Of a stretch of DNA of 64,000 bases, positions 22,022 to 45,873 are shown piece by piece (position 1 is the first letter of the stretch; every line of letters begins with the position of its first letter). This DNA is from Candidatus Woesearchaeota archaeon (GTDB lineage Archaea; Nanobdellota; Nanobdellia; Pacearchaeales; GW2011-AR1). Under the pieces are notes generated by a model, which saw nothing but the letters and a program-made list of their open reading frames with translations, was not told the DNA's origin and searched no databases. Location: the NCBI GenBank assembly GCA_964342415.1, contig CAYFFD010000001.1, positions 4,658 to 68,657 of the forward strand, written 5' to 3'. A program made the translations under genes and the position numbers.

Positions 22022-22846
22022 GTGATAGGAAATGAAATGGATTACGAAAAAAAAGGAAAAGAAGAAGGGAATTATGCTCAAGAAAGAGGGATCTCAAGAA
22101 GAAAATTTTTAATAGGTTCAGCTGCAACAGCTCTTGTTGCAGGTGCTACTTCACCTTTTTTAATACCGGGAAAAGCTTCAGCTGGGTTTTTAGAGGATAT
22201 CTTAAGTTCAGCAGGTTTGCCTGTAGAATATGATAAAACGCTTGCAATTCCTGACCCAACTATAACTCATATAATAGAACATGGAAGACTTCCAGATAAT
22301 TTTGAACTTTATAGAGAAACTATTTCAAAAGATCCTTTTATCCAGTTTTTAACGGAAATAAGAGAACTTCCAAAAGAAGGTTTTAGATATTATATGAGTA
22401 CTACTGCAGATGCTACAGGCAAGAAGCCAAATGCTATAGTTTTCCAACCAGAAAATTTCTCCACTCAATTTAATCCTAGAGAAGATTTTGTTGAAGTTTC
22501 TCGTGAAGAAGGTTTAAGTTATTTCCCTTCAATGATTAATGGAACTAAAGGAAATCGCTTCTCTCAAAAAAATTTTGTTCAAAGATTAGGGTACTATGAT
22601 GAAGAAGGAAGAGAAGTTGTATATGCAATAGGCATTCAAACTAGTGGTGAAGATAATGGTAAAACCCTAGGTTATAGAAATGCTATGATTCTTAATAAAT
22701 CAAAATTTAGTTTATACTCATCTACTAGTGATGGAGATGGTGGAGGTGGAGGAATTGGTGCTGGCCCTAGTGGAGAAGCTGGTGGTGGGCCTACCGGAGA
22801 TGCTACTGGTGGTGGAGGTCAAGCTGGAGGAGACGGAGCAAAATAA
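22022..22846 (+). CDS. secreted protein with twin-arginine signal and Gly-rich C-terminus
   Basis: SRRKFLIGSAATALVAGA is a Tat-like signal. The tail is GGGGIGAGPSGEAGGG. Confidence 0.45.
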   Translation: MIGNEMDYEKKGKEEGNYAQERGISRRKFLIGSAATALVAGATSPFLIPGKASAGFLEDILSSAGLPVEYDKTLAIPDPTITHIIEHGRLPDNFELYRETISKDPFIQFLTEIRELPKEGFRYYMSTTADATGKKPNAIVFQPENFSTQFNPREDFVEVSREEGLSYFPSMINGTKGNRFSQKNFVQRLGYYDEEGREVVYAIGIQTSGEDNGKTLGYRNAMILNKSKFSLYSSTSDGDGGGGGIGAGPSGEAGGGPTGDATGGGGQAGGDGAK

Positions 22847-25920: not shown

Positions 25921-26316
25921 GAGTTCAGAAAATGCTCAAAAAAATATGGAAATTCCTAAAGAGAATTGTGTGGGGTAAAGATTTAGTAGTTTATGAATTG
26001 AGAAAATTTTTAAGAACATTATATGAGGGTTATCCCACTCACGCCTTTTTTGATTATGAATTAAAAGGAAAAGAGAGATTAGAAGTTGGTACAACCTTCT
26101 TTTAGCAGATAAAATAATGAGTAAGGTTTGGATAGAAAAAGAAAAGAAATATGGTTATATTTTGAGAGTTGAAGGATTAAGATTAGTGGAACTTTGGAAT
26201 ACTGAAAGAATAACATTATGGATAGTTTTACTCACTTTGGTTAGTATATTTTTTATTATAAATGTAAGATAACCCTCTAACAAAACTCTTAAAAACCTTA
26301 ATTCTTATGTTTTTTT

Positions 26317-26577
26317 GTAGACTAGGTTGGCGGGTTAGCCCTCCGCTGCTTGCAAACGGGCTTTATGGCAGACTGTAAGAGGGGGCGTGACAAGAAAGTT
26401 GGGAGGTCCTTTGTTCCAACGTTGAAGTTTTGTCCGTTTTGATCTTGCAGATGCGAATTGGGTCAGGCCTTGATCGGAGCAGCCCTAAACATTTGTTAAG
26501 GTGCTTGACGGGTCGCAAGGCCGAGGAAGAACAAGGGTTAGCTTTTCAGCAATCTTTGAGCAAACTCTCGAGTCTAC
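26317..26577 (+). ncRNA. signal recognition particle RNA (SRP/7S RNA), candidate
   Basis: It is a GC-rich island in an AT-rich genome with no long ORF. The terminal helix pairs GTAGACT at 26317-26323 with AGTCTAC at 26571-26577. An internal GGGTCAGGCC...GATCGGAGCAGCC resembles the domain IV/helix 8 consensus GGUCAGGUCCGGAAGGAAGCAGCC. Confidence 0.55.
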
Positions 26578-26586
26578 TTAAAAAAA

Positions 26587-27401: not shown

Positions 27402-28100
27402 ATGAAAAAGAGTGATAGAAGAGGGCAATTTTATCTGTTTGTGACAATAATACTTCTTTCAGTAATTGTTGGAATTGCGACCTTGTCGAATTTTTCTCAA
27501 AAGCAAACAAACGTTAACTTTCAATATGTAAAGGACGAGTTGAATATAGAAAGTGAAAAAGTTTTAGACTATGGATTAAAAAACAACAAAGACACAAAAG
27601 TACTTTTAACAGATTTTACAAAAACATATTCAAACTATTCTGACGCTGACAATTTTTATTATGTTTTCGGAGACAAGGGGGAAATTACAATTTCAGGATA
27701 CAAGAAATTTTCTTCTGGGACAGTTTTGTTTGACTTAGGAAATGGAAGCCAAGAATGGAACATAAACGAAGGAGTTTATGCCTCGCAAAGTTTTTCCAAT
27801 CCTAAAAGAAACATCAACCTTACTATTGATGAAATTATTTATGACTTCACGCTAAGGCGCGGAGAGAATTTCTACTTCATACTTTCAAAAGAAACAAACG
27901 GAGAAGTTTATATTTTAAGCAATAGCTATTATGATGAAAATCTTGGGGAATGGGGTGCTTGTGGAAATGGAGTTATAGAAAGTGGAGAAACATGTGACGA
28001 TGGTAACACAAATAGTGGTGATGGTTGTTCAAGTTCTTGCCAGATAGAAGATATTGGAGGCGGTGGAGGTGAAGGTGGTGGAGATGGTGAAGCACAATAA
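27402..28100 (+). CDS. pilin-like protein with class III (type IV pilin) signal and C-terminal cysteine-rich repeat
   Basis: The N-terminus is MKKSDRRGQ followed by FYLFVTIILLSVIVGIA. The C-terminus CGNGVIESGETCDDGNTNSGDGCSSSCQ matches the Myxococcus-type Cys-rich repeat. Confidence 0.55.
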   Translation: MKKSDRRGQFYLFVTIILLSVIVGIATLSNFSQKQTNVNFQYVKDELNIESEKVLDYGLKNNKDTKVLLTDFTKTYSNYSDADNFYYVFGDKGEITISGYKKFSSGTVLFDLGNGSQEWNINEGVYASQSFSNPKRNINLTIDEIIYDFTLRRGENFYFILSKETNGEVYILSNSYYDENLGEWGACGNGVIESGETCDDGNTNSGDGCSSSCQIEDIGGGGGEGGGDGEAQ

Positions 28101-28257
28101 AAATAAAATCAATTCAGAAATTATTTTCTATTAAGATTAACATTGAGATCATATCCTGAAATTTTTAAAGAATCACATCCATTAGAAAAATTTCCTAAAG
28201 AAGAAGTCCATCCATTTAAAGAATGATAAACTTCTAATTTTTCAAAGTTATCCATTT

Positions 28258-28539
28258 TCAATTTACCCTGATAGTTTTTTGTCCCTTTAGAACATAAATT
28301 CCCCCTTTTGTTTTTCTCCCTGAAAAAGAACCATCTTTTGTTTGTGTAAATTCAACTTCTTGCTCATACCCTGAATACTCAGCATCCCAATCTCCAGATA
28401 TATCACAAACTCTCTCTCCGCTAGGAAGAACTACTGAATTTGGGGTATTAGCATCTAATGGGGTTAGTGGTTTTGGTGGTTCTGCAGTAGCACACGCTAC
28501 TTCCAAAGCTCCTATTCCTAAAGCCCCTACAACTGCCAT
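28258..28539 (-). CDS. hypothetical small protein, GC-richer than context
   Basis: It is 93 aa. ALGIGALEVACATAEPP looks like a signal or lipobox. It runs antisense to the pilus-locus orientation. Confidence 0.2.
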   Translation of the reverse strand: MAVVGALGIGALEVACATAEPPKPLTPLDANTPNSVVLPSGERVCDISGDWDAEYSGYEQEVEFTQTKDGSFSGRKTKGGIYVLKGQKTIRVN

Positions 28540-28682
28540 GTTCTTCTAATATCTTGATATCTTGATTTCATTTTAATTCCTTATATTTGAAGATTGGAGC
28601 GATTATTTATTTATAAGGATTGTTGTAATAAGGAAATTATCGAAATCTAAAAATTAATAAATAATAAAATGGTGACATAACT

Positions 28683-29384
28683 ATGAAAAAAGAGGCTTGG
28701 AAAAATCAATTTTTCTTTCTAAGAGATCGCAGAGGAATAAGCGTCATGATTGGTTATGTTCTTTTGGTAACAATTACAATAATAATAAGCACAATAATGT
28801 ATCAATGGCTTAACACTTACATTCCAACAGAGTCTTTGGATTGTCCTGATGGTGTTTCGGTTTTTGTAGAAGAGACAAGATACAACTGCACAGAAAAAAT
28901 TCTTGACTTCACGATAAAAAACAACGGAAGGTTTGACATTGCAGGTTACTTCATACACGGAACGAATTCCTCAAGCCAAGGACTTGCAACAATAGCATTA
29001 TCTCAGTACAGTAATCTGAGTGCAGAAGGAGAAATCATCTTTGATGCAGACAATAATTTTCTAAAGCCAAACAATAAATTAGACAACATATTCGATCTTA
29101 GCAATACTTCTTTCGGGCAAATTCAATCGCTTGAAATAATTCCAATAAGATATCAGCCAGTCAACAACAAAAATAGAATTGTCAGTTGCAGTGATTCAAA
29201 AATAAGAGAAGTAATTAGCTGTTATACAGGAAGTGTTCCATGTATCCCTGAAGATGTCTCTGTGACTTGTGGAACATGGGTTTGTGGTTCTAAAACAAAT
29301 AATTGTGGTGATGCGGTATCATGCCTACCAGGATGTACTTTACCGGAAACCTGTAATGCAAACGGGCAATGTACACAAGGGTAA
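28683..29384 (+). CDS. pilin-like protein with class III signal and Cys-rich C-terminus
   Basis: The N-terminus is ...LRDRRG followed by ISVMIGYVLLVTITIIISTIMY. The C-terminus is CGTWVCGSKTNNCGDAVSCLPGCTLPETCNANGQC. Confidence 0.55.
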   Translation: MKKEAWKNQFFFLRDRRGISVMIGYVLLVTITIIISTIMYQWLNTYIPTESLDCPDGVSVFVEETRYNCTEKILDFTIKNNGRFDIAGYFIHGTNSSSQGLATIALSQYSNLSAEGEIIFDADNNFLKPNNKLDNIFDLSNTSFGQIQSLEIIPIRYQPVNNKNRIVSCSDSKIREVISCYTGSVPCIPEDVSVTCGTWVCGSKTNNCGDAVSCLPGCTLPETCNANGQCTQG

Positions 29385-29842
29385 CACAAATTGATTTCTC
29401 AGGCTTTGAATCAGGAACACAAGGATGGACTTTTGGTGGATCAGATGGTGACAGAAGCAATAAAAGAAGTAATGTCGATGATTCAGGAGTTTTAGGAGGA
29501 ACATGGTCAGCACACTTACAAGATGATTCATCAACTTCAGAATTCTTAAAAAATTTTGACTTTGCCGGAGGCTATAGCCATGTTAACATATCATTTGGTT
29601 ATTATCCTAAAAGTATTGATAATAATGAGTATGTTCAACTTCTTTGCGATGGTGTTGAAGTTTGGAGGTTTACAAAGGGTGCTCATGGACAAAATGCATG
29701 GTTTTCTACAAAAGTTAAAGTCGAGATAACAGATTGTAATTTTGATTCTTCAGTTGAAATAAAGTTTGAAGGAAATCCAGGATTGTCAGGAAATTCAGAT
29801 GACATTTGGGTGGATGGTATAAATATAACAGGAATATTATAA
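29369..29842 (+). CDS. hypothetical protein, possibly a C-terminal extension of the upstream pilin-like gene
   Basis: It overlaps the upstream stop by 16 nt in the +2 frame and has no signal of its own. It is rich in G, S, D and W. Confidence 0.3.
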   Translation: MYTRVTQIDFSGFESGTQGWTFGGSDGDRSNKRSNVDDSGVLGGTWSAHLQDDSSTSEFLKNFDFAGGYSHVNISFGYYPKSIDNNEYVQLLCDGVEVWRFTKGAHGQNAWFSTKVKVEITDCNFDSSVEIKFEGNPGLSGNSDDIWVDGINITGIL

Positions 29843-29901
29843 TTAAAAATTATAACGTTAAAATTTATAAACTTAAAATATTTAAATGAAAAAACATAAC
29901 A

Positions 29902-30441
29902 ATGAAGATGATTAATTTTAATCTCCTTTCAAAAAACAATAAAGTAAATCAAAGATTTCCATTTGTCCGAATTTTTCCAAATTCAAACAAAGGGGTTTCA
30001 CCCATGATTGCAACTGTCCTTCTAATAGGAATGGTTGTTGTTATTGCCTTAATTATTTTTTTATGGTTCAAAGGATTCTCACAAGAAGCAATAGTAAAAT
30101 TCGACAAAAATGTAGAACTCGTGTGTGATGAAGTCAAGTTTGAAGCAAGCTATTCAGGAGATACGTTGGCTGTATCAAATATTGGGAATGTTCCTGTTTA
30201 TAACATCAAAGTAAAAATCTTGGAAAATGGTAATTTTGAAACAAAAGATTTAAATGACCTATCTTCAAATTGGAAGAACGCTGGATTAAATCCAGGAAGG
30301 GTTTTTTCAGATGACATAAGCTCCAGCATTGGAAGTGCAGACAGCGTAACTTTGACTCCTGTTTTAGTAGGAAGCTCTGAAAAAGGAGAAAGAACTTTTA
30401 CATGCAATGAAGCAAGATATGGTCACACAATTAATTTATAA
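29902..30441 (+). CDS. archaeal type IV pilin (class III signal peptide)
   Basis: It has NKG followed by VSPMIATVLLIGMVVVIALIIF. This is the conserved archaeal adhesion-pilin (PilA-type) H-domain. Confidence 0.6.
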   Translation: MKMINFNLLSKNNKVNQRFPFVRIFPNSNKGVSPMIATVLLIGMVVVIALIIFLWFKGFSQEAIVKFDKNVELVCDEVKFEASYSGDTLAVSNIGNVPVYNIKVKILENGNFETKDLNDLSSNWKNAGLNPGRVFSDDISSSIGSADSVTLTPVLVGSSEKGERTFTCNEARYGHTINL

Positions 30442-30952
30442 AGTGATTTTTAAAAAAAACAAAAAAGGGGTTTCTGGGATTATTGCAACGGTAATCATGA
30501 TTGGGTTAGTTATTGCAATCGCTGCGATTTTATGGAGTGTTGTAAATAATTTAATAGGAGAACAAGTTAGTTCAAGCGAATCCTGTTTTGGAAATTTCGG
30601 AAAAGTCACATTAAACAAGCAATACGTATGTAAAGATTCTATTGCAAACGAAATTCAATTTGCAATAAATATAGGGGACATAGATGTTGATAGTGCCTTA
30701 GTCTCTGTTTCAGGGCAATCAGGAACAAAAAGTTTCGAAATAAAAAATAGCACAACATATAGTTATGTCAAAATGTTTGGTGGAAGTTATGGAGGAGCAT
30801 TGCAGCTTCCTGGAGAAAATGCTGGATTAACTTATGTTGTTGGTTTAACGACTCTTGGGATCACAGACGCAACATCAATAAAAATCGCTCCAGTGTTAAA
30901 TGGAAACCAATGCGAAGTTTCTGATTCTATAACATCAATTGGTAGTTGCTGA
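30407..30952 (+). CDS. archaeal type IV pilin (class III signal peptide)
   Basis: It has KKG followed by VSGIIATVIMIGLVIAIAAIL. Confidence 0.6.
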   Translation: MKQDMVTQLIYKVIFKKNKKGVSGIIATVIMIGLVIAIAAILWSVVNNLIGEQVSSSESCFGNFGKVTLNKQYVCKDSIANEIQFAINIGDIDVDSALVSVSGQSGTKSFEIKNSTTYSYVKMFGGSYGGALQLPGENAGLTYVVGLTTLGITDATSIKIAPVLNGNQCEVSDSITSIGSC

Positions 30953-30993
30953 TTTTTCTTTAACATTAACTATTTAAATTTAATCTTATTTAA

Positions 30994-31515
30994 TTGTTCA
31001 TGAAAAAAAGAGGGCAGATTTGGATAGAGGTAGTTATTTACACCTTAATTGCATTGAGTTTAATCGGGGCTGTTCTCGCTTTTATAACTCCAAAGATAGG
31101 GGAAATTCAGGACAAAGCAATTATCGAACAAAGCATTACGATGATGCAAAACATAGACACAGTTATTTCATCAGTTGCTATTGGAGGTCCTGGAAATAAA
31201 AGAATAATTGACTTAGGAATAAAAAAAGGAGCACTAACAATAGATGCACAAAAAGATGAGTTTGTTTTTGAAATGGAAAGTGAATATGAATATAGTCAAC
31301 TAGGAGAGGAAATAAACATTGGCGATATAATTGCGCTGACAGAAGAAATAGGAAGTTTAAACAAAATAACACTAAAGATGAATTATAGTGAATATGATTT
31401 AACCTACAATGGAAAAAATGAAACAAAATTAATCACAAAAGCTTCAACACCTTACAAATTGTCAATTGAAAACAAAGGGGGAACAAAGACAATAATCGAA
31501 ATTATTGTTAGTTAA
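30994..31515 (+). CDS. pilin-like protein (class III signal, RGQ type)
   Basis: It has MFMKKRGQ followed by IWIEVVIYTLIALSLIGAVLAF. Confidence 0.5.
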   Translation: MFMKKRGQIWIEVVIYTLIALSLIGAVLAFITPKIGEIQDKAIIEQSITMMQNIDTVISSVAIGGPGNKRIIDLGIKKGALTIDAQKDEFVFEMESEYEYSQLGEEINIGDIIALTEEIGSLNKITLKMNYSEYDLTYNGKNETKLITKASTPYKLSIENKGGTKTIIEIIVS

Positions 31516-31545
31516 TTTTAAAAGAATTAATTGTATTAAATAAAA

Positions 31546-33108
31546 ATGGAAGTTATCAAAAAAAAGAGGGGAATACAGGATTATCCAAAAGTCTTGATAA
31601 ATTTTTCTCCAAAAATTCCTCCTCTAAAAAAACTCTCTGACAAAACAAAAGTCAACATAAGGTATTCATTGATTCATCCTTTCGCATTTGCACATATTTA
31701 TTGGGATCCAAAAATTTACGAATTAGTATATGAAGTGGAAGAGCCATATTTAAATGAAACAGAAAAAAAACACAGGGAAGAAATAGTCTCTGCAATGGAA
31801 AATATGATTAATCTTGGAGATATTGTAGATAAAAAAAGAGAAGTTGTCTTAGAATATATTGACAGAATGTTCAAAATTTTAGTGATAGAGCTTGGAATAG
31901 AACTCTCATATCAAAGCTACAAAAAAATATTTTATTATCTTAGTAGAGATTTTATTGGTTTCAACAAAATAGAACCCTTGCTAAGAGATTATTTTGTTGA
32001 AGATATAGAATGCAACGGACTTGATACTCCTATTTATGTTGTGCATCGGGCTTATCGAAACATGAAAACAAATATTAAATTCAATGACTTGGACAAGCTT
32101 TCAAATTTTGTTGAGAAACTTGCTCAAAAAACTGGAAAATATGTTTCCTATGCAAATCCAATTCTCGATGGAAGCCTACCTGATGGAAGCAGAGTTAATG
32201 CAACTTACACTAAAGACATAACAAGCAAGGGTCCAACATTCACGATAAGAAAATTTACAAAAACTCCATGGACCCCTCCTCAGCTTATAAAATTCAATAC
32301 ATTAAGCCCTGAGATGGTTGCTTATTTGTGGATATTAATTGAGCATAAAATGAATATTTTACTCACAGGAGGAACTTCTTCCGGAAAAACAACTTTGCTT
32401 AATGCAATCGCGTTTTTCATTCCTCCAGAGGCAAGAGTTGTTAGTATTGAAGACACTCGTGAATTAAACCTTCCAAGAGAGAACTGGCTTCCAAGCGTTG
32501 CAAGAAATTCAACAGGTGTTGGAAACATCGGAGAAATTGATTTATTCACTTTGCTAAGAAGCTCTTTCAGGCAGAATCCTGATTATGTAATTGTCGGAGA
32601 AGTCAGGGGAAAAGAAGCGTCTGTTTTATTTCAAGGAATGGCTTCAGGACATTCTTCACTAAGCACAATGCACGCCGACTCCGTGGACACTGTAATAAAA
32701 AGACTTGAAACTCCTCCTATCGAACTTTCACCAACATTGTTGAATGTTCTTGACTGTGTTTGCATCATGACTCATGCAATTGTAAAAAAGCAAGAGACAA
32801 GAAAATTAAAAGAAATTGTGGAAATAATAAACGTAAATCCAAATGGAATCGCCTTAACAAACACACCTTTTTTATGGAATCCTTCAGATGATAGCTTTTA
32901 CTTTAAAAAAAACAGCAAGATATTTGAAAAAATTTCAAGAAGAAGCGGATTAAAAATTGAAGAACTTGAATTAGAATTCAGAAAAAGAGCGCAATTGATT
33001 CATAAAATATCTCAAGAGAAAATTTTCGAATTTGAAAAATTTCAGGGAATAGTAAATGAATATTACAAAAAACCTGAAGAAGTTCTAAAAAAATTTGGAA
33101 TTATGTAA
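31546..33108 (+). CDS. type IV pilus/secretion ATPase (PilB/FlaI/TadA, VirB11 superfamily)
   Basis: It has Walker A LLTGGTSSGKTTLLNA and Walker B/Asp box IVGEVRGKEA. The His box is present. Length is 520 aa. Confidence 0.85.
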   Translation: MEVIKKKRGIQDYPKVLINFSPKIPPLKKLSDKTKVNIRYSLIHPFAFAHIYWDPKIYELVYEVEEPYLNETEKKHREEIVSAMENMINLGDIVDKKREVVLEYIDRMFKILVIELGIELSYQSYKKIFYYLSRDFIGFNKIEPLLRDYFVEDIECNGLDTPIYVVHRAYRNMKTNIKFNDLDKLSNFVEKLAQKTGKYVSYANPILDGSLPDGSRVNATYTKDITSKGPTFTIRKFTKTPWTPPQLIKFNTLSPEMVAYLWILIEHKMNILLTGGTSSGKTTLLNAIAFFIPPEARVVSIEDTRELNLPRENWLPSVARNSTGVGNIGEIDLFTLLRSSFRQNPDYVIVGEVRGKEASVLFQGMASGHSSLSTMHADSVDTVIKRLETPPIELSPTLLNVLDCVCIMTHAIVKKQETRKLKEIVEIINVNPNGIALTNTPFLWNPSDDSFYFKKNSKIFEKISRRSGLKIEELELEFRKRAQLIHKISQEKIFEFEKFQGIVNEYYKKPEEVLKKFGIM

Positions 33109-33144
33109 GCAAATATTTAATAATACAAAATCCTTTTTCATGAC

Positions 33145-33330
33145 ATGAAAGATGGTGATAAATTTTTAACAAAAGAAGAGATTTCTTTTCTTAATCAACT
33201 TATAAAATCTCTCGAAGAATCAAACAAAAAGCTTGAAGAGTATTATATAAAAAAAGATTACAAGAATTTCAAGAATGTTAAAAAATTCATGTTGGAAATT
33301 CAAAAAAAAATTTCTAAAGCGATAAAATGA
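33145..33330 (+). CDS. small coiled-coil protein
   Basis: It is 61 aa and translationally coupled to the ATPase and platform genes. Confidence 0.3.
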   Translation: MKDGDKFLTKEEISFLNQLIKSLEESNKKLEEYYIKKDYKNFKNVKKFMLEIQKKISKAIK

Positions 33331-34700
33331 TTCATGAAGGAAAATTTTTTCAAGAGTTAAAAAATAGTATTTCAAGAGAAGTGGAAATAATTAAAGAAAT
33401 GAATTCTTTTTTTAATAATTTAGAAAGCCATGATCAAGAAGAAAAGGATATGGTTTTTTCACAAACAAGTTCTTTAAAAAAATTATTAAAAAAGGAGAAT
33501 GATAATATTTTGATAGCATTGAATAAAATATCTCTTGTAAAGCCACTCCAGAATTCACAAATTCATTCTAAATTGCCAAGAAGCCAAATCAGAACATTAT
33601 TACTTAAAGACCAAAGTAAAACCTCTAATGAAAATTTTTTAATGCCTCAAACTAAAAAGAAAAAAAATTTCATTGAAAAAATTTCTCAAAAAAGATCTCT
33701 TTACAAAAAATTTTCCTTGAAAAAATTTGAAAAAGATACTCTTAAAAGAATTGGGAAAAAAGAAAAAGAAATCGTTGGCAAAAAAACAAAAAAGCCAAGC
33801 ACATATGTTAGTTTAGCTAATAGGCTTTTTTCAAACGTTTCATCTTCCTTAATTGAAAAAGGAATGTTCAAAAACTTAAACGAGAATCTCTCAAGAACAA
33901 ATAGGGAATTTCTTCTTAAAGGTTATGTCTCGATAATTCTTTTTACAACACTACTCTCTGTAATTGCGGGAATTTTTACTTTCACGTTTTTCCTATTTTT
34001 CAATATCCAAATTGCCTTTCCTTTCATAACAATGACTAGTGATTTATTTATGACAAGATTCTTGAAAGTGTTCTGGATTTTGTTTGCAGTTCCAATTGCG
34101 ACTTTCTCATTTGCATATTTTTATCCTGCACTCGAAAAAGACTCTCTTGAAAAAAGAATTAATCAGGAACTTCCTTTTGCAACAATAAACATGGCAGCTA
34201 TTTCGGGCTCAATGATTAATCCAACAGAAATATTCAGTATAATTGTCTCGACAAAAGAATATCCAATCCTTGAAAAAGAATTTATAAAAATAATAAACGG
34301 CATGAATGTCCTTGGATATGATTTGATTACCGTATTAAGAAACAGTGCCTTCCACAGCCCGAGTAAAAAACTCGCTGATTTGCTAAATGGAATTGCGACC
34401 ACTGTAAACTCTGGCGGAGATCTAGGAAAATTCTTTGATGAAAGAGCGAAGAACCTTCTTTTCGAATATGATCTTGAAAAAGAAAAAAGCACAAGAGCTG
34501 CAGAAACCTTCATGGATATCTACATCAGCGTTGTTATCGCAACCCCTATGATTTTGATGCTTTTGTTAATCATGATGCAAATCAGTGGTTTAGGGATATC
34601 CTTAAGCACAGGAATGATTACCTTAATAATGGTTTTAGGAGTCACTGCAATAAACATTGTCTTCTTATCATTTTTGCACATAAAACAATCAAACGAATAA
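33327..34700 (+). CDS. pilus platform membrane protein, TadC/PilC/FlaJ-like (T2SSF domain), N-terminal half with K-rich extension
   Basis: It has a ~170-aa charged N-terminus followed by TM helices. The layout of cytoplasmic domain plus TM pairs is typical of a T2SSF domain. Confidence 0.55.
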   Translation: MIHEGKFFQELKNSISREVEIIKEMNSFFNNLESHDQEEKDMVFSQTSSLKKLLKKENDNILIALNKISLVKPLQNSQIHSKLPRSQIRTLLLKDQSKTSNENFLMPQTKKKKNFIEKISQKRSLYKKFSLKKFEKDTLKRIGKKEKEIVGKKTKKPSTYVSLANRLFSNVSSSLIEKGMFKNLNENLSRTNREFLLKGYVSIILFTTLLSVIAGIFTFTFFLFFNIQIAFPFITMTSDLFMTRFLKVFWILFAVPIATFSFAYFYPALEKDSLEKRINQELPFATINMAAISGSMINPTEIFSIIVSTKEYPILEKEFIKIINGMNVLGYDLITVLRNSAFHSPSKKLADLLNGIATTVNSGGDLGKFFDERAKNLLFEYDLEKEKSTRAAETFMDIYISVVIATPMILMLLLIMMQISGLGISLSTGMITLIMVLGVTAINIVFLSFLHIKQSNE

Positions 34701-34701
34701 A

Positions 34702-35532
34702 ATGGAAATTAAAAAAACTCATTGGATTGGAATAGTTGTATCAGGATTGGTTATGCTATCTTCATTGTTTTTCATAGAAACAAGGTGGTTTTTCATTTTT
34801 ATAGGAACAGGGATTATAATTGGAGTTCTTCCTTTTGTGTTCTCAACAATACGCGAAACAAAGGTTGAAAATGAAAAAGAAGAAATGTTCCTTGAATTTG
34901 CAAGAAATTTGGCGGAAAGCGGAAAAACAGGAATTCCAATAAGCAAAAGTATAATCAATGTCAAGGACAGGGCTTATGGAGTTTTAAGCAGGCATATTAA
35001 AAAATTAGCAAACCAAATTTATTTAGGAATTCCTTTGGGAAGTGCATTAAAAGTATTTTCAAGAGATGTAAATAACAAAACAATTTCTAGAGCAATAACT
35101 CTTATAGGACAAGCAGAAAAATCAGGAGGAGATATTGCAGAAATTCTAGAATCTGTTGCAGGAGCCGTAAACACTTCTGATAAGTTAAAGAAAGAAAGAA
35201 AAGCAGTAATATCCACGTTAGTTGTTCAAGGATATATAATTTTTGTTATCTTTATAGTAATAATTCTTGTTTTGCAATTCAAGATAATTCCAATGATTGA
35301 AGGAGTAGGAAGCTTAGGACTAGGAGAAACAGCAGGAACAGTTCCTAGCGATGCAGGTGGTACTGATGTGTCAAGTGTTTTTTTCTATTTGCTTATAATC
35401 CAAGGACTTTTTAGCGGTCTAACAATAGGAAAGCTAGCAGAGAAAAACTTCAAGGCAGGAATAAAACACTCATTCACTTTGATGTTCCTTGCATTCATAG
35501 TTTCTTCAGCAGCCAATATCTTTTTTGGTTAA
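34702..35532 (+). CDS. pilus platform membrane protein, second T2SSF-like domain (TadB/TadC-like)
   Basis: It starts 2 nt after the previous stop. It has TM-loop-TM topology with a cytoplasmic helical domain (EFARNLAESGKTGIPISKSI...). Confidence 0.5.
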   Translation: MEIKKTHWIGIVVSGLVMLSSLFFIETRWFFIFIGTGIIIGVLPFVFSTIRETKVENEKEEMFLEFARNLAESGKTGIPISKSIINVKDRAYGVLSRHIKKLANQIYLGIPLGSALKVFSRDVNNKTISRAITLIGQAEKSGGDIAEILESVAGAVNTSDKLKKERKAVISTLVVQGYIIFVIFIVIILVLQFKIIPMIEGVGSLGLGETAGTVPSDAGGTDVSSVFFYLLIIQGLFSGLTIGKLAEKNFKAGIKHSFTLMFLAFIVSSAANIFFG

Positions 35533-35556
35533 TTTAATTAAAATTAAAAACTCATT

Positions 35557-36282
35557 TTGGCTATTTATTTAATGAAAAAGAAAAGAGGAGGCACTCATGT
35601 AGGATTTATGCTCTCATTTGTGATATTTGTGGTTTTTCTAATTTTTATTTATTCAATTCTCATAGAGCCAACAATAACTCAAAGTGATAAAAAGTCTGCT
35701 TTAGAAAATTTAAAAATAAGATTAATTGAAAAAGTTTCTGAAGACTTAACTTCAACAGCGGTAAATCTAAAAATTTCTAATCCAAGTGAAAATTGTATTG
35801 AACTAAAAAATTTTATATCTCAAGCAGAGATAAGCCCAAATATTATCTCTAAAAATAATAACAATGTTTTACAATCATACGTTTCCTCAAACAATCTAAA
35901 AATAGAAAGATGGAGTAGTGAAATCTTTTTTAAGATATATTATTCAAAAGAATTTGAAGCATTAAGTTCAGGAGGATCAAATTGCAAGAGAGTTAATGAA
36001 AACCAATACGCTATTGGTTTAATAAAAGTTGAAGAGTATGTTTTTGAAAATAAAATTATTGATTTGATTAACAGCTATAAAGTAGATTATGAACAGCTTA
36101 AAGAAGAATTAAAAATCCCTTTTGGAAGCGATTTCGGCTTTGGCTTTACATATGGTAATGGAACATTAATAACAACAGAAAAAAATGTGTCTACAAATGT
36201 CTATGCTTCCGAAATTCCTGTTCAATATGTCAATAAAAACGCAGAGGTTCTGTTAGGTTTTATAAATATAAAAACATGGTGA
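35557..36282 (+). CDS. pilin-like protein (possible class III signal)
   Basis: It has KKKRGG followed by THVGFMLSFVIFVVFLIFIYSIL. Confidence 0.4.
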   Translation: MAIYLMKKKRGGTHVGFMLSFVIFVVFLIFIYSILIEPTITQSDKKSALENLKIRLIEKVSEDLTSTAVNLKISNPSENCIELKNFISQAEISPNIISKNNNNVLQSYVSSNNLKIERWSSEIFFKIYYSKEFEALSSGGSNCKRVNENQYAIGLIKVEEYVFENKIIDLINSYKVDYEQLKEELKIPFGSDFGFGFTYGNGTLITTEKNVSTNVYASEIPVQYVNKNAEVLLGFINIKTW

Positions 36283-36719
36283 TAAAAATGTTAAAAAAAA
36301 GAGGATGGCTAAGAATTGTTGAGGCGTTTGTTATGATATTATTAATAACAGGAGTTTTATTAATAGTTTTAGACAAAGGATCTCTCCTAAAAAATAATGA
36401 TTCTAAAAAGATTTATGAAGACGAACAAGGAATTTTAAGAAAAATTCAGCTGAATAATTCATTGAGAGATGTTGTCTTAAGTTTTCCTTTAAGTGAATTA
36501 CCAATTGAATGGGTAGATTTTTCTTTAGACATTAAAAACAAAATAATTTCAAAAACACCTTCTTACTTAAATTGTGAGGCAAAAATCTGTAATGTAAATG
36601 GAATTTGTGTTTTAAGCCAAGCCAATGAAAAAAGTGTTTATGTGCAATCAACAATTTTTACTTCAACTTTGGACAAAAATGATCCAAGACAGTTAAAATT
36701 ATTTTGCTGGAAAAAATAA
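36276..36719 (+). CDS. pilin-like protein (class III signal)
   Basis: It has KKRG followed by WLRIVEAFVMILLITGVLLIVL, with a Glu near +5/+6 of the mature end. Confidence 0.45.
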   Translation: MVIKMLKKRGWLRIVEAFVMILLITGVLLIVLDKGSLLKNNDSKKIYEDEQGILRKIQLNNSLRDVVLSFPLSELPIEWVDFSLDIKNKIISKTPSYLNCEAKICNVNGICVLSQANEKSVYVQSTIFTSTLDKNDPRQLKLFCWKK

Positions 36720-36823: not shown

Positions 36824-37096
36824 TTATGCTGGACTGCTGTTGTACCATCTAATTGCAGAACTTTTTTCTTTAAAATTAAAACCATTATCTGAAGAATCCT
36901 CTTCGTCCGTAGAACCTTCATTTTCTTGTTCTTCTTGTTGATAAAGAAACTCGCCAATCTTATCCTCTTTGTCTAAATCAAAAATATTGCTCAAACCACC
37001 ATAAGTAAATTGAACATAAAGATTTAAAGATACGAAAATTAAAATAAAAATTACTAGAATCAAAATTAAAAAACCAATTCCTTTTTTAGATTTCAT
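36824..37096 (-). CDS. small membrane protein with acidic tail
   Basis: It has an N-terminal TM and a D/E-rich segment. It overlaps a 70-aa ORF in another frame (36745..36957). Confidence 0.3.
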   Translation of the reverse strand: MKSKKGIGFLILILVIFILIFVSLNLYVQFTYGGLSNIFDLDKEDKIGEFLYQQEEQENEGSTDEEDSSDNGFNFKEKSSAIRWYNSSPA

Positions 37097-38473: not shown

Positions 38474-39757
38474 ATGGAAAAGAGGTTTGTTGAATTAATG
38501 TTAATGTCTGCATTAATTATCTTCTTATCTACAGGAGTTTTTGCGTTAGGTGAATCTTGTTTTATAACAGATAGGGCAACATGTGAAGCATCTGGAACTA
38601 TTGTAATGGGTTTATCTGGCATTACAAATGCCCATGGTGAATTAGCAAGCGAAGGAAATTATGGTAGTGTTTTGTGTTGTAATTTTGTAGGAAGCCTGAC
38701 TTGTGATAGTAGTAATTCAAATAAGATCATAAGATTATCTTCAAGCACTAATGCTCATGCAGAAATCCCTGATCAAACAACTTACACAACAAATGTTTGC
38801 TATGAAAATTTAAACTGCATAAGCACATCTCAAAATTGTGGAGATATAACAGAATCTCCTTACACACCTATTTTTTCTTTGTCAAATTTTACAAATGCAC
38901 ATATTGGAGGGATAAATGATTACCCTAATATAAGAATTTGTTGTACTTCTCCAAGTTTTGTTGTTTCTTCTTCAAATGTTTTTTGGAGCAGTAATGAAAC
39001 TATTGAAATTTCACAACTAGATGTGATACCAGAAACAACAAGTGTTAAAATGGTTTTAGAAACATCTGGATTGTCACAAGGCACAGAAGTTAGTTTTAAT
39101 ATTTTGGAAGAAGATTTCTTTTTAAATGCAGATGATAAAATAAGACATGTTGATAATGGAAATGCAATAACTGCAACAATTGATGCTAACGGAGACGCGA
39201 TTGCAAACTGGACAATCACTTTAGAAGATTTAGAAAAAACAGCATCAAATGATTATGATGAATTTTATTTTGAAGTTAATAATGAGATAAGTAATTATTT
39301 AACATTAAACATTTTAAATATTTCAGTTTGTGAAGACATAGTCATTTGTGGGAATTATGAAAATGAAGTTTCATGTGGGAATGATATCTGCCAAGTTGCA
39401 GGAACCGATGCCCCTACAAATGTGACTTGTGATGACCCTACAATAAACTGCCAATGTTCATGGACTGATCAGTGTAATTTTGAATTTGAATCCCAAGAAG
39501 TAAATGGAACAGTAATTGGAACTTGTACTTTTGTTGAAAACACTGAAGACGATTGTTCTGACGGACTTTTAAGTTATTCATGGATAACAACATGGACAGA
39601 GGATTTAGGAGATAAGCCTTTGGAGTGCAGTGATGGAAGCAGAGTTCTTGAATGTCCTGCGCAAATCCAACTTCCATTCTTTGGATTTTATAATTTAATT
39701 GTCGCAGTATTACTTATTGCAATAATTTACTTTATAATTCTAAGAAGAAAAGATTAA
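38474..39757 (+). CDS. cysteine-rich surface protein with C-terminal TM anchor
   Basis: It has a signal peptide and many Cys. The C-terminus is FYNLIVAVLLIAIIYFIILRRKD. Confidence 0.45.
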   Translation: MEKRFVELMLMSALIIFLSTGVFALGESCFITDRATCEASGTIVMGLSGITNAHGELASEGNYGSVLCCNFVGSLTCDSSNSNKIIRLSSSTNAHAEIPDQTTYTTNVCYENLNCISTSQNCGDITESPYTPIFSLSNFTNAHIGGINDYPNIRICCTSPSFVVSSSNVFWSSNETIEISQLDVIPETTSVKMVLETSGLSQGTEVSFNILEEDFFLNADDKIRHVDNGNAITATIDANGDAIANWTITLEDLEKTASNDYDEFYFEVNNEISNYLTLNILNISVCEDIVICGNYENEVSCGNDICQVAGTDAPTNVTCDDPTINCQCSWTDQCNFEFESQEVNGTVIGTCTFVENTEDDCSDGLLSYSWITTWTEDLGDKPLECSDGSRVLECPAQIQLPFFGFYNLIVAVLLIAIIYFIILRRKD

Positions 39758-39793: not shown

Positions 39794-42451
39794 ATGAAAA
39801 GAGGGGTGATAATTGTTTTTTTGGCATTAGTGTTAGTTTCAAGTTTTATTTATGCAGTTCTCGAAATCGGAACTCAAAGCCATGAAATTGAAACAAGATA
39901 TGCGCAAAACGATTCCATAAGAGGATGGATAAACATCAGTCTTGAAAACGAGCCTGCAAATTCATTGTTTGAAGATTCTTACGAAAATTCAATAACATTA
40001 ATTGATTTATTAAAACTGAATAATAATTCAGATTATGATTGCTTGCCTGCTGACTGCGAAAGTGATTATTCTGCAAACAACCAAGAGGCCTCAAAAACAT
40101 TCACCTTAAACAAAAACCAACAAAAAACACTTGGATTCAAATTTACAGGAGCTAGTTTTGAAAGTGTTTCCTCCTTCTCTGTAAATGTTTTAAGTACTTC
40201 ATCGGAAGGAACATCAAAGCAATTATTTATAGATATTTTGAATAATGATGAAATTGAATGGCAATCCTACAATCCTTCAGATAATTTTTACGGTGAAGAT
40301 TATGGCTGCTATGAATCACCAAACGAAGAAGTGTTAATTCACAATGAAGTGTATTGCGAGAAAATCAATCTTCCTGTCTCTCCAAATGTAGAGATTGGAG
40401 CTTATGTTATTGAAGCCAATCAAACAGGAGAAAGCGCCGTCTTTGTCTTAAGCTTAGAAGGGGAAGGTAACAGTGATTCATGTGAAACAACTGCAACCTC
40501 AAGCGGAAGAATATCATGTGTTCTTGATTCTGGAACAAATAAAAAACAGGATTATTTCATATGCATGAGAACAAAAAACTCTGCCGACAATTTCAAATAT
40601 AAAATTAATTCTGAAACAAATGCACCTTGTGGTTACGCAGGAACTGAAGAAAATGAAAGAGATTTTGAAATCTTTGTAAAGCCTGGAAAATTTTCATCTG
40701 TTGGGAACTTTGCATTAACAAGTGATGAAGCAAAAAATTCAGGAAGTAGCACAAATATCGAAGCAGATATAATTGATTATATTGGAAGATATAACAATGA
40801 CTGCTCGCAGGAATGCATCATCCCAATAAAGTTTATTTCAGAAGAGGATGATCAACAGATAACAATTTCAGATGTAAGCATTTTCCATACTGTAAGTGGA
40901 ACTCCTAAAGAGACAAATGAAATTTATGATTTAACAGAATCTCCTGCAATAATAAATTCAGAATTCCAGAAATTAGACTTAGATAATGCAGGTTTAACCA
41001 TCTCTGGAGAATTTGACAAACAAGGAACGTATTCTTTAAGCCTAGACAGCAATGAAATTTTTTCTGAAGAGATTTCATTTGAAAAAGCTCCACAGATAAA
41101 ATCATTGAATCCAAAAACAGCAATAGCTGCATATCCAACTGAATTCACTTTGGAAGTGGAAGGCTCTGAATCTAATATATTAAGCTATGAATGGGATTTT
41201 GGAAATGGCGACAAGAAAACAACAGTAGAAAACAAAGTAACCAATACTTACAGTTCTGTAGGATTATTTGAATTGAAAATTAAAATAACAGACTCAAACA
41301 ACTTCAGTTTATCAAAAACATATAACATAAACGTCAAAACACCAAAAGATGCAATAAATTTCGTATTAAAAAATAAATTCGATGATTTAAACAATGTTCT
41401 TGAAAAAATTCAAACTATCCCTGAATTTTATCAAAGTTCATTAAATAAAATTCTAAACATAACAGAAATCGAAGACGAGATAACAAGTATTCAGCAAAAA
41501 AATTCAATAGCACAAACCGACAATGATTATGTGAAAATCATGGCTGATCTTGTAAAACTTGATGTTCCTAAATCTGTTTTTGAAAGCAAGAGCGCGGATT
41601 CAATAAAATTTCTATCAGATGAAAAAAACATAGATCTTGAAATATTAAAAGAAGTTGGAAAGGGTGAATATCAAGAAGACAAAAAAGACCAATATACTGA
41701 TTCAATAATATTGTGGAACATTGAGAACATTGATGCAGCAGTAACTTTCAAAGAATTTTCTGTTGAATATGACGACTTTTCAGAGAGAGTTTTAAATGTT
41801 TTTGAATTAAAGATAAACGAAAAATTGGAACGAGAGGATTTTTTCTTTATCATAAAAGATATTGAAGATTTGGAATTCAAAGAAAATTATGGACAAAGGA
41901 AAGTATTAGGATATAATTATATAAAGTTAGGTGTCGAAGAAGAAACAATTGAATTTCTAACAACAGAAGATGTTGATTTTAAAAATTTACCAGTATTTAT
42001 TTCTCCAGAAATAAAAGGGCTGTCAATAGTCAAAACAGGACTTTCACTGCTTGAAGAAAATCTTCCAAGCTGGAGTTTGTTAATTTTAATTTTTTTATTT
42101 ATTTTATTTATAGGAATAATTGCATATGTGGTGTTACAAGAATGGTACAAAAGAAAATATGAAGATTATTTGTTCAAAGATAAAAATAGTCTTTACAATT
42201 TAATTTCATATATAGAAGGTGTAAAAAAGAAAGGAATTAAAGGTGATGAAATAGAGAAAAAATTAAAAAAAACAGGATGGAATTCTGAACAAGTCACTTA
42301 CATCATGAGAAAATATGTGGGAAAAAGAACAGGTATGTTTGAGATTCCTATTGAATGGATTTTAAAGATCTTCAAAAAAAGGCGTGGGCAAAATATTCAA
42401 CAGAAAAAAGGAAATCTTCAAAACCAGTCACGTGAAAAAAGAATTAAATGA
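39794..42451 (+). CDS. large surface protein with PKD domain and C-terminal TM plus cytoplasmic tail
   Basis: It has a signal peptide. The PKD-like segment is YEWDFGNGDKKTT...YSSVGLFELKIKITDSNN. The TM is SLLILIFLFILFIGIIAYVVL and an ~80-aa basic tail follows. Confidence 0.55.
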   Translation: MKRGVIIVFLALVLVSSFIYAVLEIGTQSHEIETRYAQNDSIRGWINISLENEPANSLFEDSYENSITLIDLLKLNNNSDYDCLPADCESDYSANNQEASKTFTLNKNQQKTLGFKFTGASFESVSSFSVNVLSTSSEGTSKQLFIDILNNDEIEWQSYNPSDNFYGEDYGCYESPNEEVLIHNEVYCEKINLPVSPNVEIGAYVIEANQTGESAVFVLSLEGEGNSDSCETTATSSGRISCVLDSGTNKKQDYFICMRTKNSADNFKYKINSETNAPCGYAGTEENERDFEIFVKPGKFSSVGNFALTSDEAKNSGSSTNIEADIIDYIGRYNNDCSQECIIPIKFISEEDDQQITISDVSIFHTVSGTPKETNEIYDLTESPAIINSEFQKLDLDNAGLTISGEFDKQGTYSLSLDSNEIFSEEISFEKAPQIKSLNPKTAIAAYPTEFTLEVEGSESNILSYEWDFGNGDKKTTVENKVTNTYSSVGLFELKIKITDSNNFSLSKTYNINVKTPKDAINFVLKNKFDDLNNVLEKIQTIPEFYQSSLNKILNITEIEDEITSIQQKNSIAQTDNDYVKIMADLVKLDVPKSVFESKSADSIKFLSDEKNIDLEILKEVGKGEYQEDKKDQYTDSIILWNIENIDAAVTFKEFSVEYDDFSERVLNVFELKINEKLEREDFFFIIKDIEDLEFKENYGQRKVLGYNYIKLGVEEETIEFLTTEDVDFKNLPVFISPEIKGLSIVKTGLSLLEENLPSWSLLILIFLFILFIGIIAYVVLQEWYKRKYEDYLFKDKNSLYNLISYIEGVKKKGIKGDEIEKKLKKTGWNSEQVTYIMRKYVGKRTGMFEIPIEWILKIFKKRRGQNIQQKKGNLQNQSREKRIK

Positions 42452-43135: not shown

Positions 43136-43534
43136 ATGAAAAAAAGAGTGAAAAAAATAAAAGGTTTTACAATACAATTCATGCCTTATTCTGAAATAAG
43201 GGATTTGAATAGTAGTGAAAGAATAAAAAAAATATTGAAAATTGTTTTAGGTAATCATATTTTACTTTTACAGGGGAAATTAAAATCAGAAGAAGAAACA
43301 AGGTTGATAGAGGATACAATGGTAATGGTAGGTCATGTAAAAAATTTCAAGGGAATTGAACTTGCAGTTATATCTGATAATGGAAATGATAATTTATTTG
43401 GGAGATTCAGAAAAGGAATTGTAAATACATTACTTAAGGGAGATTTAGGTGCAATAACAATAATAGGTCCTGCGACAATTGTCAAAGAAATAAAAAGGAA
43501 TCCAAAAAAGATTGAACTTCTCCTGAATAAATAA
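43136..43534 (+). CDS. hypothetical protein coupled to the GTPase
   Basis: It is 132 aa and starts 7 nt after the GTPase stop. Confidence 0.35.
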   Translation: MKKRVKKIKGFTIQFMPYSEIRDLNSSERIKKILKIVLGNHILLLQGKLKSEEETRLIEDTMVMVGHVKNFKGIELAVISDNGNDNLFGRFRKGIVNTLLKGDLGAITIIGPATIVKEIKRNPKKIELLLNK

Positions 43535-43782
43535 TGAAAGAAAAATTTTCCATTACAAGAGTTGTAACGAGAGATGTTATCACTGATTTTTTTCAAATAA
43601 TAAGGAATCTTTTTGGGATGAGATTAAAAGGATATGAAGAAATAATAAGCACAAATATAAAAGAGCTAATAAAAGGTGGAGAGAAAAAATACAAAATAGA
43701 TTGGTGGAGATTATCTATTAATCCATTAACACACAGTTCTATAATGATTACATTCTATGGGGAAGGAACGAAAAAGAAATAA
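43534..43782 (+). CDS. hypothetical small protein
   Basis: It is 82 aa. Its start overlaps the upstream stop. Confidence 0.3.
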   Translation: MKEKFSITRVVTRDVITDFFQIIRNLFGMRLKGYEEIISTNIKELIKGGEKKYKIDWWRLSINPLTHSSIMITFYGEGTKKK

Positions 43783-43845
43783 TTTTTGATTAATAAAATT
43801 TTTAATTATGGAAAAAATTAAATAGTATCTTTTATTTTAAAAAAG

Positions 43846-44229
43846 ATGCCATACCAATGTGTCAAGTGTTCGAGAATTATTCCTATAGGAAATAAAGAAT
43901 TGATAGAAGGGTGTGGAGATTGTAAGGGTCATTTTTTCTTTTATATTAGGGATGAACAATTGAAAAAAATAAAAGAAAGGCCGATTGAAATCCCAAACGA
44001 AGAGAAAAAGGAAGTTGAGAAAAATATAAGGGAAATGGCAGGAATTCCTGATGAAAACGCACCGGTGATTCTTGATATAGAGTCTGTAAGAGTTCTCAGT
44101 GATGGGAAATTTGAAATTGATGTTGTAAGTTTATTCGAAAAGAAAAAGCCCTTAGTCTACAAACTAGAAGAAGGAAAGTATATAATTGATCTGACTTTTA
44201 TGGGAGAAAGAAAAGATGAAGAAAATTAA
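43846..44229 (+). CDS. zinc-ribbon protein
   Basis: CVKCSR...CGDCKG forms a Cys4 ribbon at the N-terminus. Confidence 0.4.
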   Translation: MPYQCVKCSRIIPIGNKELIEGCGDCKGHFFFYIRDEQLKKIKERPIEIPNEEKKEVEKNIREMAGIPDENAPVILDIESVRVLSDGKFEIDVVSLFEKKKPLVYKLEEGKYIIDLTFMGERKDEEN

Positions 44230-45868: not shown

Positions 45869-45873
45869 TTGAA

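Follow-up and report, generated by a model that had tools for sequence, protein, structure and literature searches.

What does an archaeon build from seven pilin-like genes, an assembly ATPase and two membrane genes that stand side by side on one strand? This question is raised by positions 27402–36719 (+) of the 64,000-nucleotide (nt) stretch analysed here, which we call the window. An earlier note on this DNA had read the locus as a complete type IV pilus locus of the Tad/Aap kind, plausibly used for host attachment. Our analysis indicates that it is likely to be an operon-like 11-gene archaeal type IV pilus module of a marine, Pacearchaeota-type DPANN archaeon. All open reading frames (ORFs) described in the earlier note are present on the + strand at their stated positions. 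In total the locus has twelve ORFs, the 11-gene module and a detached piece of pil2 (lengths in amino acids, aa):

pil1, 27402–28100 (+), 232 aa, pilin-like protein
pil2, 28683–29384 (+), 233 aa, modular pilin, truncated by a frameshift
orf157, 29369–29842 (+), 157 aa, detached C-terminal β-rich module of pil2, without a signal peptide of its own
pil3, 29902–30441 (+), 179 aa, best candidate for the major pilin
pil4, 30407–30952 (+), 181 aa, second PilA-type pilin
pil5, 30994–31515 (+), putative minor pilin, likely start ATG 31000
ATPase, 31546–33108 (+), 520 aa, FlaI/GspE2/PilB3 type
orf61, 33145–33330 (+), 61 aa, small helical protein
platN, 33327–34700 (+), 457 aa, N-terminal half of the platform
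platC, 34702–35532 (+), 276 aa, C-terminal half of the platform
pil6, 35557–36282 (+), 241 aa, large, putative minor pilin-like protein, likely start ATG 35572
pil7, 36276–36719 (+), 147 aa, putative minor pilin, likely start ATG 36288

The gene order is pil1-pil2-pil3-pil4-pil5-ATPase-orf61-platN-platC-pil6-pil7. The gene spacing bears out the translational coupling proposed earlier for several of these genes: orf61 and platN share 4 nt, a gap of only 1 nt lies between platN and platC, and both pil3/pil4 and pil6/pil7 overlap. AT-rich TATA-like boxes can be seen by eye ahead of pil1, pil2 and pil3, and such boxes are ubiquitous in this DNA of 31% G+C content (GC). A scan for sigma-70 promoters and terminators gave fewer matches than shuffled sequence; the consensus is bacterial and is uninformative for an archaeon.

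Prepilin-like N-termini cluster at this locus. The 131 window ORFs of at least 60 aa were scanned for a class III-like pattern, defined as [KR][GA] with a hydrophobic stretch of 20 aa or more after it. Eight ORFs matched, and seven of them fall within 27402–36719; the probability that at least seven of eight matches fall by chance in this 14.6% of the window is about 1e-5. All seven class III N-termini described earlier for this strand are therefore present, with predicted cleavage sites (marked by a slash) at RRG/QFYLF in pil1, DRRG/ISVMIGYVLLV in pil2, NKG/VSPMIATVLLI in pil3, KKG/VSGIIATV in pil4, KRG/QIWIEVVIY in pil5, KRG/GTHVGFML in pil6 and KRG/WLRIVEAFV in pil7. The window proteins were mapped by phmmer onto 80 species-representative related loci, in which the corresponding family signatures are K[RK]G/QFYL (pil1), KKG/[VI]S.MIGYVLL (pil2), K[KR]G/VSPVIATVLLI (pil3), KKG/LS.VI.TV (pil4), RG/QVWVETVIYTL (pil5), KKG/SHVG..LSF (pil6) and KKG/WI[KR]IVEAF (pil7). 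Since each family has its own motif around [KR]G, the seven appear to be old, distinct subunits and not recent duplicates.

Two further ORFs were set aside. The eighth match, an 885-aa protein with PKD domains (39794–42451), probably carries an ordinary Sec signal; its homologue in the related locus L024 reads MKRGILFLFF...ASVYA/A. A 90-aa ORF at 36824–37096 (-), MKSKKG/IGFLILILV, which is convergent with pil7 and has an acidic tail, was considered as a short major pilin of the Flp/EpdE-like type, but it is population-only and absent from the 80 related loci.

Three of the seven proteins, pil2, pil3 and pil4, are of the PilA type. Their matches to Pilin_N are below the cut-off, and they match the UpsA model with 22–42 bits against a cut-off of 130 bits (E 9e-11 for pil3). 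TIGR02537, the archaellin/pilin N-terminal domain, is matched above its cut-off by pil3 (4.4e-8) and pil4 (4.3e-8). No Arch_flagellin match was found, but the earlier statement that the locus has no flagellin-type N-terminus is imprecise, as TIGR02537 is common to archaellins and pilins. The AlphaFold2 model of pil3, built from 102 sequences with a predicted local distance difference test score (pLDDT) of 88, has an N-terminal helix of approximately 26 residues (34–59) and an immunoglobulin (Ig)-like β-sandwich. The best match of pil3 in both sequence and structure is 8FK7, the type IV pilus of Pyrobaculum calidifontis. Its conservation and fold make pil3 the candidate for the major pilin. The likeness of pil4 to pil3 is confined to the leader and the N-terminal helix. 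The leaders of both are unusually long here, approximately 31 aa in pil3 and 21 aa in pil4 against a median of 8–10 in the relatives, and they resemble each other (K..V.Q..F/Y..IF...KG); the pil3 leader has no internal alternative start codon.

The families of pil5, pil6 and pil7 have no detectable relatives among curated families. The N-terminus of pil5 is of the bacterial or Epd style, with Q+1, W+3, E+5 and Y+9 each present in 88% of the family; pil5 has no relative in Pfam or the PDB. For pil6, whose family has no Pfam model, AlphaFold2 predicts (pLDDT 90.7) a 48-residue N-terminal helix and an α/β globular domain. In the pil7 family, W+1 is found in 97% and E+6 in 100% of the members, and pairs of cysteines are conserved. 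PDB searches with the sequences of pil4, pil5, platN and platC gave nothing useful.

The machinery that would assemble these subunits is present at the same locus. The ATPase matches Pfam T2SSE with 116 bits (1.8e-33; cut-off 24.9), which bears out its earlier description as a FlaI/PilB/TadA-type enzyme; the gene is intact, and direct reading shows the Walker A motif GGTSSGKTT. Among NCBIfam models, FlaI (NF058587) matches over the full length with 398.5 bits, below the 550-bit equivalog cut-off, and the second-best model is the bindosome protein BasE with 214 bits. The TadA-family model gives 151 bits (cut-off 373). In the PDB, the best match is GspE of Archaeoglobus fulgidus (2OAP; 366 bits, residues 37–516), followed by FlaI (285 bits) and CpaF (168 bits). 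The match to PilB3_C, 24.7 bits, is below the cut-off of 27; this domain is recorded for many close homologues.

Two T2SSF-like membrane genes follow, as claimed, and each encodes one T2SSF domain (cut-off 25.2). In platN, an approximately 190-aa Lys-rich cytoplasmic extension precedes the domain (44.7 bits, 1.5e-11), and transmembrane (TM) segments are predicted; the T2SSF match of platC has 55.6 bits (6.6e-15). The two proteins correspond to different parts of the 555-position ArlJ/FlaJ model, platN to positions 25–242 and platC to positions 271–547, and jointly they span the N-half and the C-half of the FlaJ/UpsF models. As they match opposite halves and share 25% identity with each other, platN and platC appear to be the two ancient halves of one platform protein, in colinear order. 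In fused relatives of 585–876 aa, among them a fused platform protein of Halobacteria, platC aligns to the C-terminal half; a look-up of the clusters of these relatives yielded hardly any taxonomy. A sequencing frameshift or an assembly artefact was considered as the cause of the split and is ruled out, because two ORFs are present in every related locus; platC is always a separate ORF in the relatives, and the modal platN–platC gap is 1 nt. The small protein orf61, which is encoded just before platN, is helical, coiled-coil-like and cytoplasmic, with a conserved LnqL..Lee..kLEeaY motif. It has no significant family match.

Homologues of these proteins carry the names FlaI, FlaJ and flagellin-like in Joint Genome Institute (JGI) annotation. 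Could the locus then encode an archaellum, as the automatic annotation implies? The ATPase and platform are homologous to those of the archaellum (FlaB/FlaI/FlaJ): of all NCBIfam models, FlaI fits the ATPase best (398 bits), and both halves of the platform match the ArlJ/FlaJ models. The N-terminal domain TIGR02537 is also shared, the best structural match of pil3 is a pilus called ‘flagellar-like’, and a comparative study of DPANN archaea interpreted genes of this kind in Woesearchaeota as a sign of motility (PMC8407392). Against this, the FlaI score stays below the equivalog cut-off, Archaeoglobus GspE is the better match, and the platform is split. When essentially every plausible ORF of 110 aa or more in the window was scanned against Pfam, there was no match to FlaH/KaiC, FlaF/G, FlaX/FlaCDE or Arch_flagellin, so that the reported absence of FlaH, FlaF and FlaG holds, and the archaellum accessory genes are also outside the conserved module of the approximately 80 loci. 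In the pilins, the N-terminal helix is short and the Ig-like domains are small: the pil3 helix is pilin-like and shorter than that of archaellins (PMC10334743). Among 102 pil3 homologues, Pilin_N is found in 68 and Arch_flagellin in 1. The filament of 8FK7 itself does not supercoil and is classed as a pilus (PMC10334743). An archaellum is thus highly improbable. The domain matches, the structure model, the lack of archaellum-specific genes and the taxonomy of the homologues all agree with the earlier view that this is a pilus locus.

The type IV pilus module is not peculiar to this genome. The order from pil1 to pil7 is the rule across approximately 80 species representatives of Pacearchaeota, Woesearchaeota and Nanoarchaeota. 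Of the 52 loci whose upstream DNA was long enough, every one (52/52) has pil3, pil4 and pil5, 48 have pil1 and 47 have pil2. In the 55 loci with enough downstream DNA, platN is present in 47, platC in 46, orf61 in 45, pil6 in 37 and pil7 in 33. ATPase homologues with 69–85% identity come from metagenome-assembled genomes (MAGs) labelled Pacearchaeota, Woesearchaeota or Nanoarchaeota, and the exact ATPase sequence is found on Tara Oceans contigs from several Tara samples and in the MAG GCA_977368645.1. This taxonomy of the homologues, DPANN of the Pacearchaeota/Woesearchaeota type, supports the earlier assignment to a small-genome archaeon, and the window has archaeal content (MCM, thermosome, aEF-1alpha, aEF-2, proteasome, exosome, RtcB and OapB/C). 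The median identity to the window protein across the relatives is 74% for the ATPase, 62% for platC, 49% for platN and pil5, 48–49% for pil3 and 34–44% for the other pilins. In 27 genomes, the tRNA ligase RtcB is encoded beside the locus, and there its identity is 49% against 74% for the ATPase. Judged by these identities, the ATPase appears unusually constrained, more so than the neighboring RtcB.

To which kind of type IV pilus does the module belong? Archaeal type IV systems with two platform genes comprise clade 1 or System 1 (Epd-like) and many clade 2 loci (PMC4858521), the single-T2SSF criterion being described elsewhere (PMC6668835, 10.64898/2026.04.22.720090). System 1 has been reported in DPANN by a 2026 survey (10.64898/2026.04.22.720090). 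The locus shares with the Epd-like systems, including the Epd pilus of Methanococcus maripaludis, two adjacent single-T2SSF platform genes, one ATPase and many class III proteins. Some pilins of Epd-like systems have Gln+1 and Glu+5, as does pil5, and pil1 has Q+1; the Epd pilus also has a role in adhesion, as we propose for this locus. However, the ATPase gene stands ahead of the platform genes and not after them as in Epd. No EppA, no second ATPase of the FlaH/MinD type and no major pilin of approximately 70 aa without a globular domain were found in the window, and pil2, pil3 and pil4 are of the PilA/Pilin_N type.

Clade 2, with Haloferax PilB3/PilB4-PilA and A. fulgidus GspE, is known to include some nanoarchaea and often has two tadC-like genes (Makarova 2016, PMC4858521). 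The best ATPase match (2OAP), the weak PilB3_C match and the PilA-type pilins of the locus agree with this clade, whereas the platform that is always split, the seven pilin families in cis and in fixed order, and the absence of a MinD-like ATPase differ from it. The ATPase and the PilA-type pilins thus point to clade 2 (PilB3/afGspE), while the Epd side is suggested by the split platform and by the pilin with Q+1/E+5. We therefore call the system an archaeal type IV pilus and assign no subtype.

The likeness to Tad noted earlier is a loose one. As in the Tad/Flp (type IVc) order tadA-tadB-tadC-(tadD)-tadE-tadF, an ATPase gene is followed by two single-domain platform genes and two pilin-like genes, and there is no separate retraction ATPase. 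The Tad and Epd platforms arose by gene fission, with TadC as the N-half and TadB as the C-half (Denise et al. 2019, PMC6668835); the halves at our locus, N and then C, are therefore in the opposite order to tadB-tadC. The arrangement of the N-half and the C-half after the ATPase differs from both Tad and Epd. The fission seen here may possibly have occurred independently of that in Epd/Tad, or it may be the ancestral one. CpaF is a weaker ATPase match (168 bits) than GspE or FlaI, and no MinD/TadZ, secretin (RcpA), TadD, TadV or short Flp/EpdE-like pilin was found in the window. The Aap part of the earlier comparison is not supported. The Sulfolobus Aap and Ups systems are, like the proposed one, adhesive type IV pili of archaea, and they too comprise an ATPase, a platform and pilins of the PilA kind, but they have a single platform gene (AapF in Aap), AapX and UpsX were not detected at the locus, and the gene set of the locus is much larger. 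The locus shows no feature specific to Aap; its platform is split, and orf61 is its sole extra accessory gene.

The first two pilins of the module are modular. In the window, pil1 has a C-terminal Cys-rich DUF4215/myxo_disulf repeat (DUF4215, 5.8e-7; TIGR02232, 1.5e-12) and a Gly/Glu-rich tail. The pil2 family has short forms of 170–200 aa and long forms of 350–534 aa, and some genomes have both. The long forms carry a Cys-rich DUF4215 linker, and in one case, the pil2 of L073, there is a Concanavalin A-like/LamG lectin domain (5.5e-18). The window pil2, a pilin core with a Cys-rich linker, stops at a TAA directly after the GGG at 29379–29381, and orf157 continues in another frame. With one G added at 29379–29381, the two read as a single 390-aa fusion, and this can be aligned over its whole length with the pil2 of L018, a protein of 454 aa (E 5.6e-64), which identifies orf157 as the detached C-terminal module of a long-form pil2; orf157 alone also matches the L018 protein (3.5e-14). 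The nearest relative, L084 (ATPase identity 85%), has a short pil2, no orf157 and no 582-nt insert between pil1 and pil2.

Such swappable Cys-rich or lectin-like C-terminal modules on pil2, and here on pil1, suggest tip adhesins. The analogy is with PilB and PilC of Streptococcus sanguinis, modular tip pilins with grafted adhesion modules (PMC9934059). The module of PilC is a ConA-like lectin, as in the L073 pil2 homologue. The likeness is functional and architectural, an analogy and not homology, between pilins of different fold from different domains of life.

Two observations were made on the DNA around pil1. The C-terminus of pil1 (28050–28100) and an exported protein at 22022–22846 (+), which has a twin-arginine-like N-terminus (RRKFLIGSAA), have similar Gly-rich acidic tails, ...DIGGGGGEGGGDGEAQ and ...GDGGGGGIGAGPSGEAGGGPTGDATGGGGQAGGDGAK. 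The common tail may be a lineage-specific sorting or anchoring motif. The spacer between pil1 and pil2 (28100–28683; 582 nt) contains minus-strand ORFs (28258–28539), with a 93-aa Ala/Gly/Pro-rich antisense ORF, and its GC reaches 0.41. In L084 this spacer is only approximately 80 nt long, and the antisense ORF is in no other related locus. The spacer is probably a lineage-specific insertion.

The frameshift in pil2, the 582-nt insert with its antisense ORFs that is absent from the nearest relative, and the unusually long leader peptides of pil3 and pil4 could be taken as signs of a decaying or non-functional remnant in this genome. All other genes are intact, however, and the ATPase motifs are kept. 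The truncated pil2 retains its whole pilin core, several Tara samples yielded the identical sequence, and the module is strongly conserved across the clade. We give a remnant very little credence.

On the reading as a pilus, the parts would work together as follows. The seven prepilins would enter the membrane, and an unlinked class III signal peptidase, encoded elsewhere, would cut after the conserved [KR]-G. A hexameric ATPase of the FlaI/GspE type would dock on a heterodimer of platN and platC, with possible involvement of orf61 and the Lys-rich cytoplasmic N-terminus of platN, and would pull pilins from the membrane into the growing fiber. The shaft would be made of pil3, possibly with pil4, the mature pil3 being predicted as a short hydrophobic helix with an Ig-like domain. 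A priming or tip complex would consist of pil5, pil6 and pil7, with the near-invariant Glu+5 of pil5 and the invariant Glu+6 of pil7, and the exchangeable Cys-rich or lectin-like modules displayed by pil1 and pil2 would act as adhesins. Such a fiber would probably serve to attach the cell to a host or a surface; attachment to a host is a reasonable suggestion, backed by the lectin-like and Cys-rich pilin extensions. What the analysis shows are the genes and their domains, the pilin architecture of the pil3 and pil6 models, the synteny, the split of the platform and the modularity; cleavage, the ranking of pilins as major or minor, the place at the tip and attachment to a host are inferred from these.

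The same parts could instead form a type IV filament or short pseudopilus for the uptake of DNA or nutrients, or for the secretion or display of proteins, as in competence pili, the pseudopili of type II secretion systems (T2SS) and the Sulfolobus bindosome. This would suit an auxotrophic DPANN cell. The locus has many conserved putative minor pilins, as do T2SS and Com systems, the very strong constraint on the ATPase suggests an essential function, BasE of the bindosome is the second-best ATPase model (214 bits), and a secreted nuclease is encoded 10 kb upstream. A 2026 survey also suggests that ‘functionalised’ type IV machineries for scavenging of substrates are widespread. However, no solute-binding domain is present in any of the seven pilin-like proteins, no gene of the ComEC/ComEA type was found in the locus or the window, and the relatives do not keep the nuclease in synteny with the locus. 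The variable lectin-like and Cys-rich modules of pil1 and pil2 fit adhesion better. We consider such an uptake or secretion device unlikely, albeit less so than an archaellum.

Several points weigh against the reading as an adhesive pilus. The filament is predicted here from genes, sequence comparison and structure models. In this genome pil2 is frameshifted, although its pilin core is whole. The case for pil3 as the major pilin is one of conservation and fold, and the pil6 model has no significant relative among solved pilin structures. The word ‘complete’ in the earlier note is an overstatement: no Peptidase_A24 (PibD/FlaK/EppA) match was obtained for any ORF of 110 aa or more in the 64-kb window, nor is one linked to the approximately 80 related loci, and a search of the window and these loci with a GxGD regular expression and a census of multi-TM ORFs gave no recurrent candidate for a prepilin peptidase. 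With none in the window or beside the loci of the relatives, pilin processing is a prediction. Two nanoarchaeal genomes are reported to have secretion ATPases without an identifiable prepilin peptidase (Makarova et al., PMC4858521), and FlaK annotations have been reported in Woesearchaeota (PMC8407392). Finally, a groundwater study states that DPANN genomes lack components of type IV pili (10.1101/2020.05.14.094862); this statement appears to rest on bacterial-type markers.

The window does encode one GxGD protease, at 47103–48059 (-). It is an 8-TM protein of the presenilin/signal-peptide-peptidase (SPP) type with YD, GGGD and PAM-P motifs (PF06550, 3.6e-14). We did not count it as the prepilin peptidase, because its motifs are of the presenilin/SPP type and nothing links it to the processing of pilins, though the window encodes no other GxGD protease.

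Other surface and secreted proteins are encoded on both sides of the pilus locus. Downstream of RtcB are a 427-aa Cys-rich surface protein with a C-terminal TM anchor (38474–39757, +) and the 885-aa PKD-domain surface protein (39794–42451, +); their position is kept in the nearest relatives L084 and L024, but not across the clade. The predicted secreted nuclease, a staphylococcal-type nuclease fused to a lamin-tail domain, lies approximately 10 kb upstream of the locus (16340–17122, +), and its gene is followed by that of a 1585-aa protein with many Ig-like domains (17204–21961, +). These two could serve scavenging and adhesion functions. Two small Ala-rich ORFs at 3–656 (+) and 742–1170 (+) have a bacterial-style lipobox (LTAC and LGAC) and no Pfam match, and are unusual for this AT-rich archaeal genome.

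The remaining features concern RNA genes and replication. A GC-rich island without an ORF at 26315–26579 (+) (GC 0.45–0.47 against approximately 0.31 in the window) matches the archaeal signal recognition particle (SRP) RNA model RF01857 with 80.6 bits (E 2.5e-18). This is below the gathering score of 96.5, and the match is therefore absent from the default Rfam scan. A 139-nt Rfam tRNA match at 11047–11185 (+), not reported by ARAGORN, is consistent with an intron-containing archaeal tRNA. The origin-associated OapB and OapC genes (43136–44229, + and about 44000–46000) are at the peak of the cumulative GC skew, where the coding strand turns from + to -, and a replication origin may lie near 43.5–46 kb.

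Type IV pili with two platform genes are already known from archaea and have been noted in DPANN before, and pilus islands of DPANN are rich in unannotated ‘dark-matter’ pilins (Makarova et al. 2019, PMC6393860). New here are the details: 11 genes in a fixed layout, seven pilin families with orthologues in the relatives, a modular pil2 and an ATPase under unusual constraint. The colinear split platform adds a data point on the origin of the Tad/Epd platform fission. The finding contradicts two readings in the literature: that DPANN archaea are without type IV pili, and that their FlaI/FlaJ-like genes stand for archaellar motility.

The archaea of the Pacearchaeota and Woesearchaeota are abundant and uncultured and have small genomes, and a module of 11 genes takes up more than 1% of such a genome. 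It is thus a concrete candidate for an attachment device. Tentatively, and as a reading that we hold well short of probable, the module might be no accessory adhesin but the essential host-capture organelle of the Pacearchaeota/Woesearchaeota radiation. The ATPase, the split platform and the pilins pil3, pil5, pil6 and pil7 would then form an invariant core that is more strongly constrained than a housekeeping enzyme, the modules of pil2 and pil1 would set the specificity for host or ligand, and the pil2 frameshift would reflect on/off or module switching. For studies of the contact between DPANN archaea and their hosts, the locus provides a parts list: a candidate for the shaft, three conserved putative minor pilins and two modular pilins that may be adhesins.

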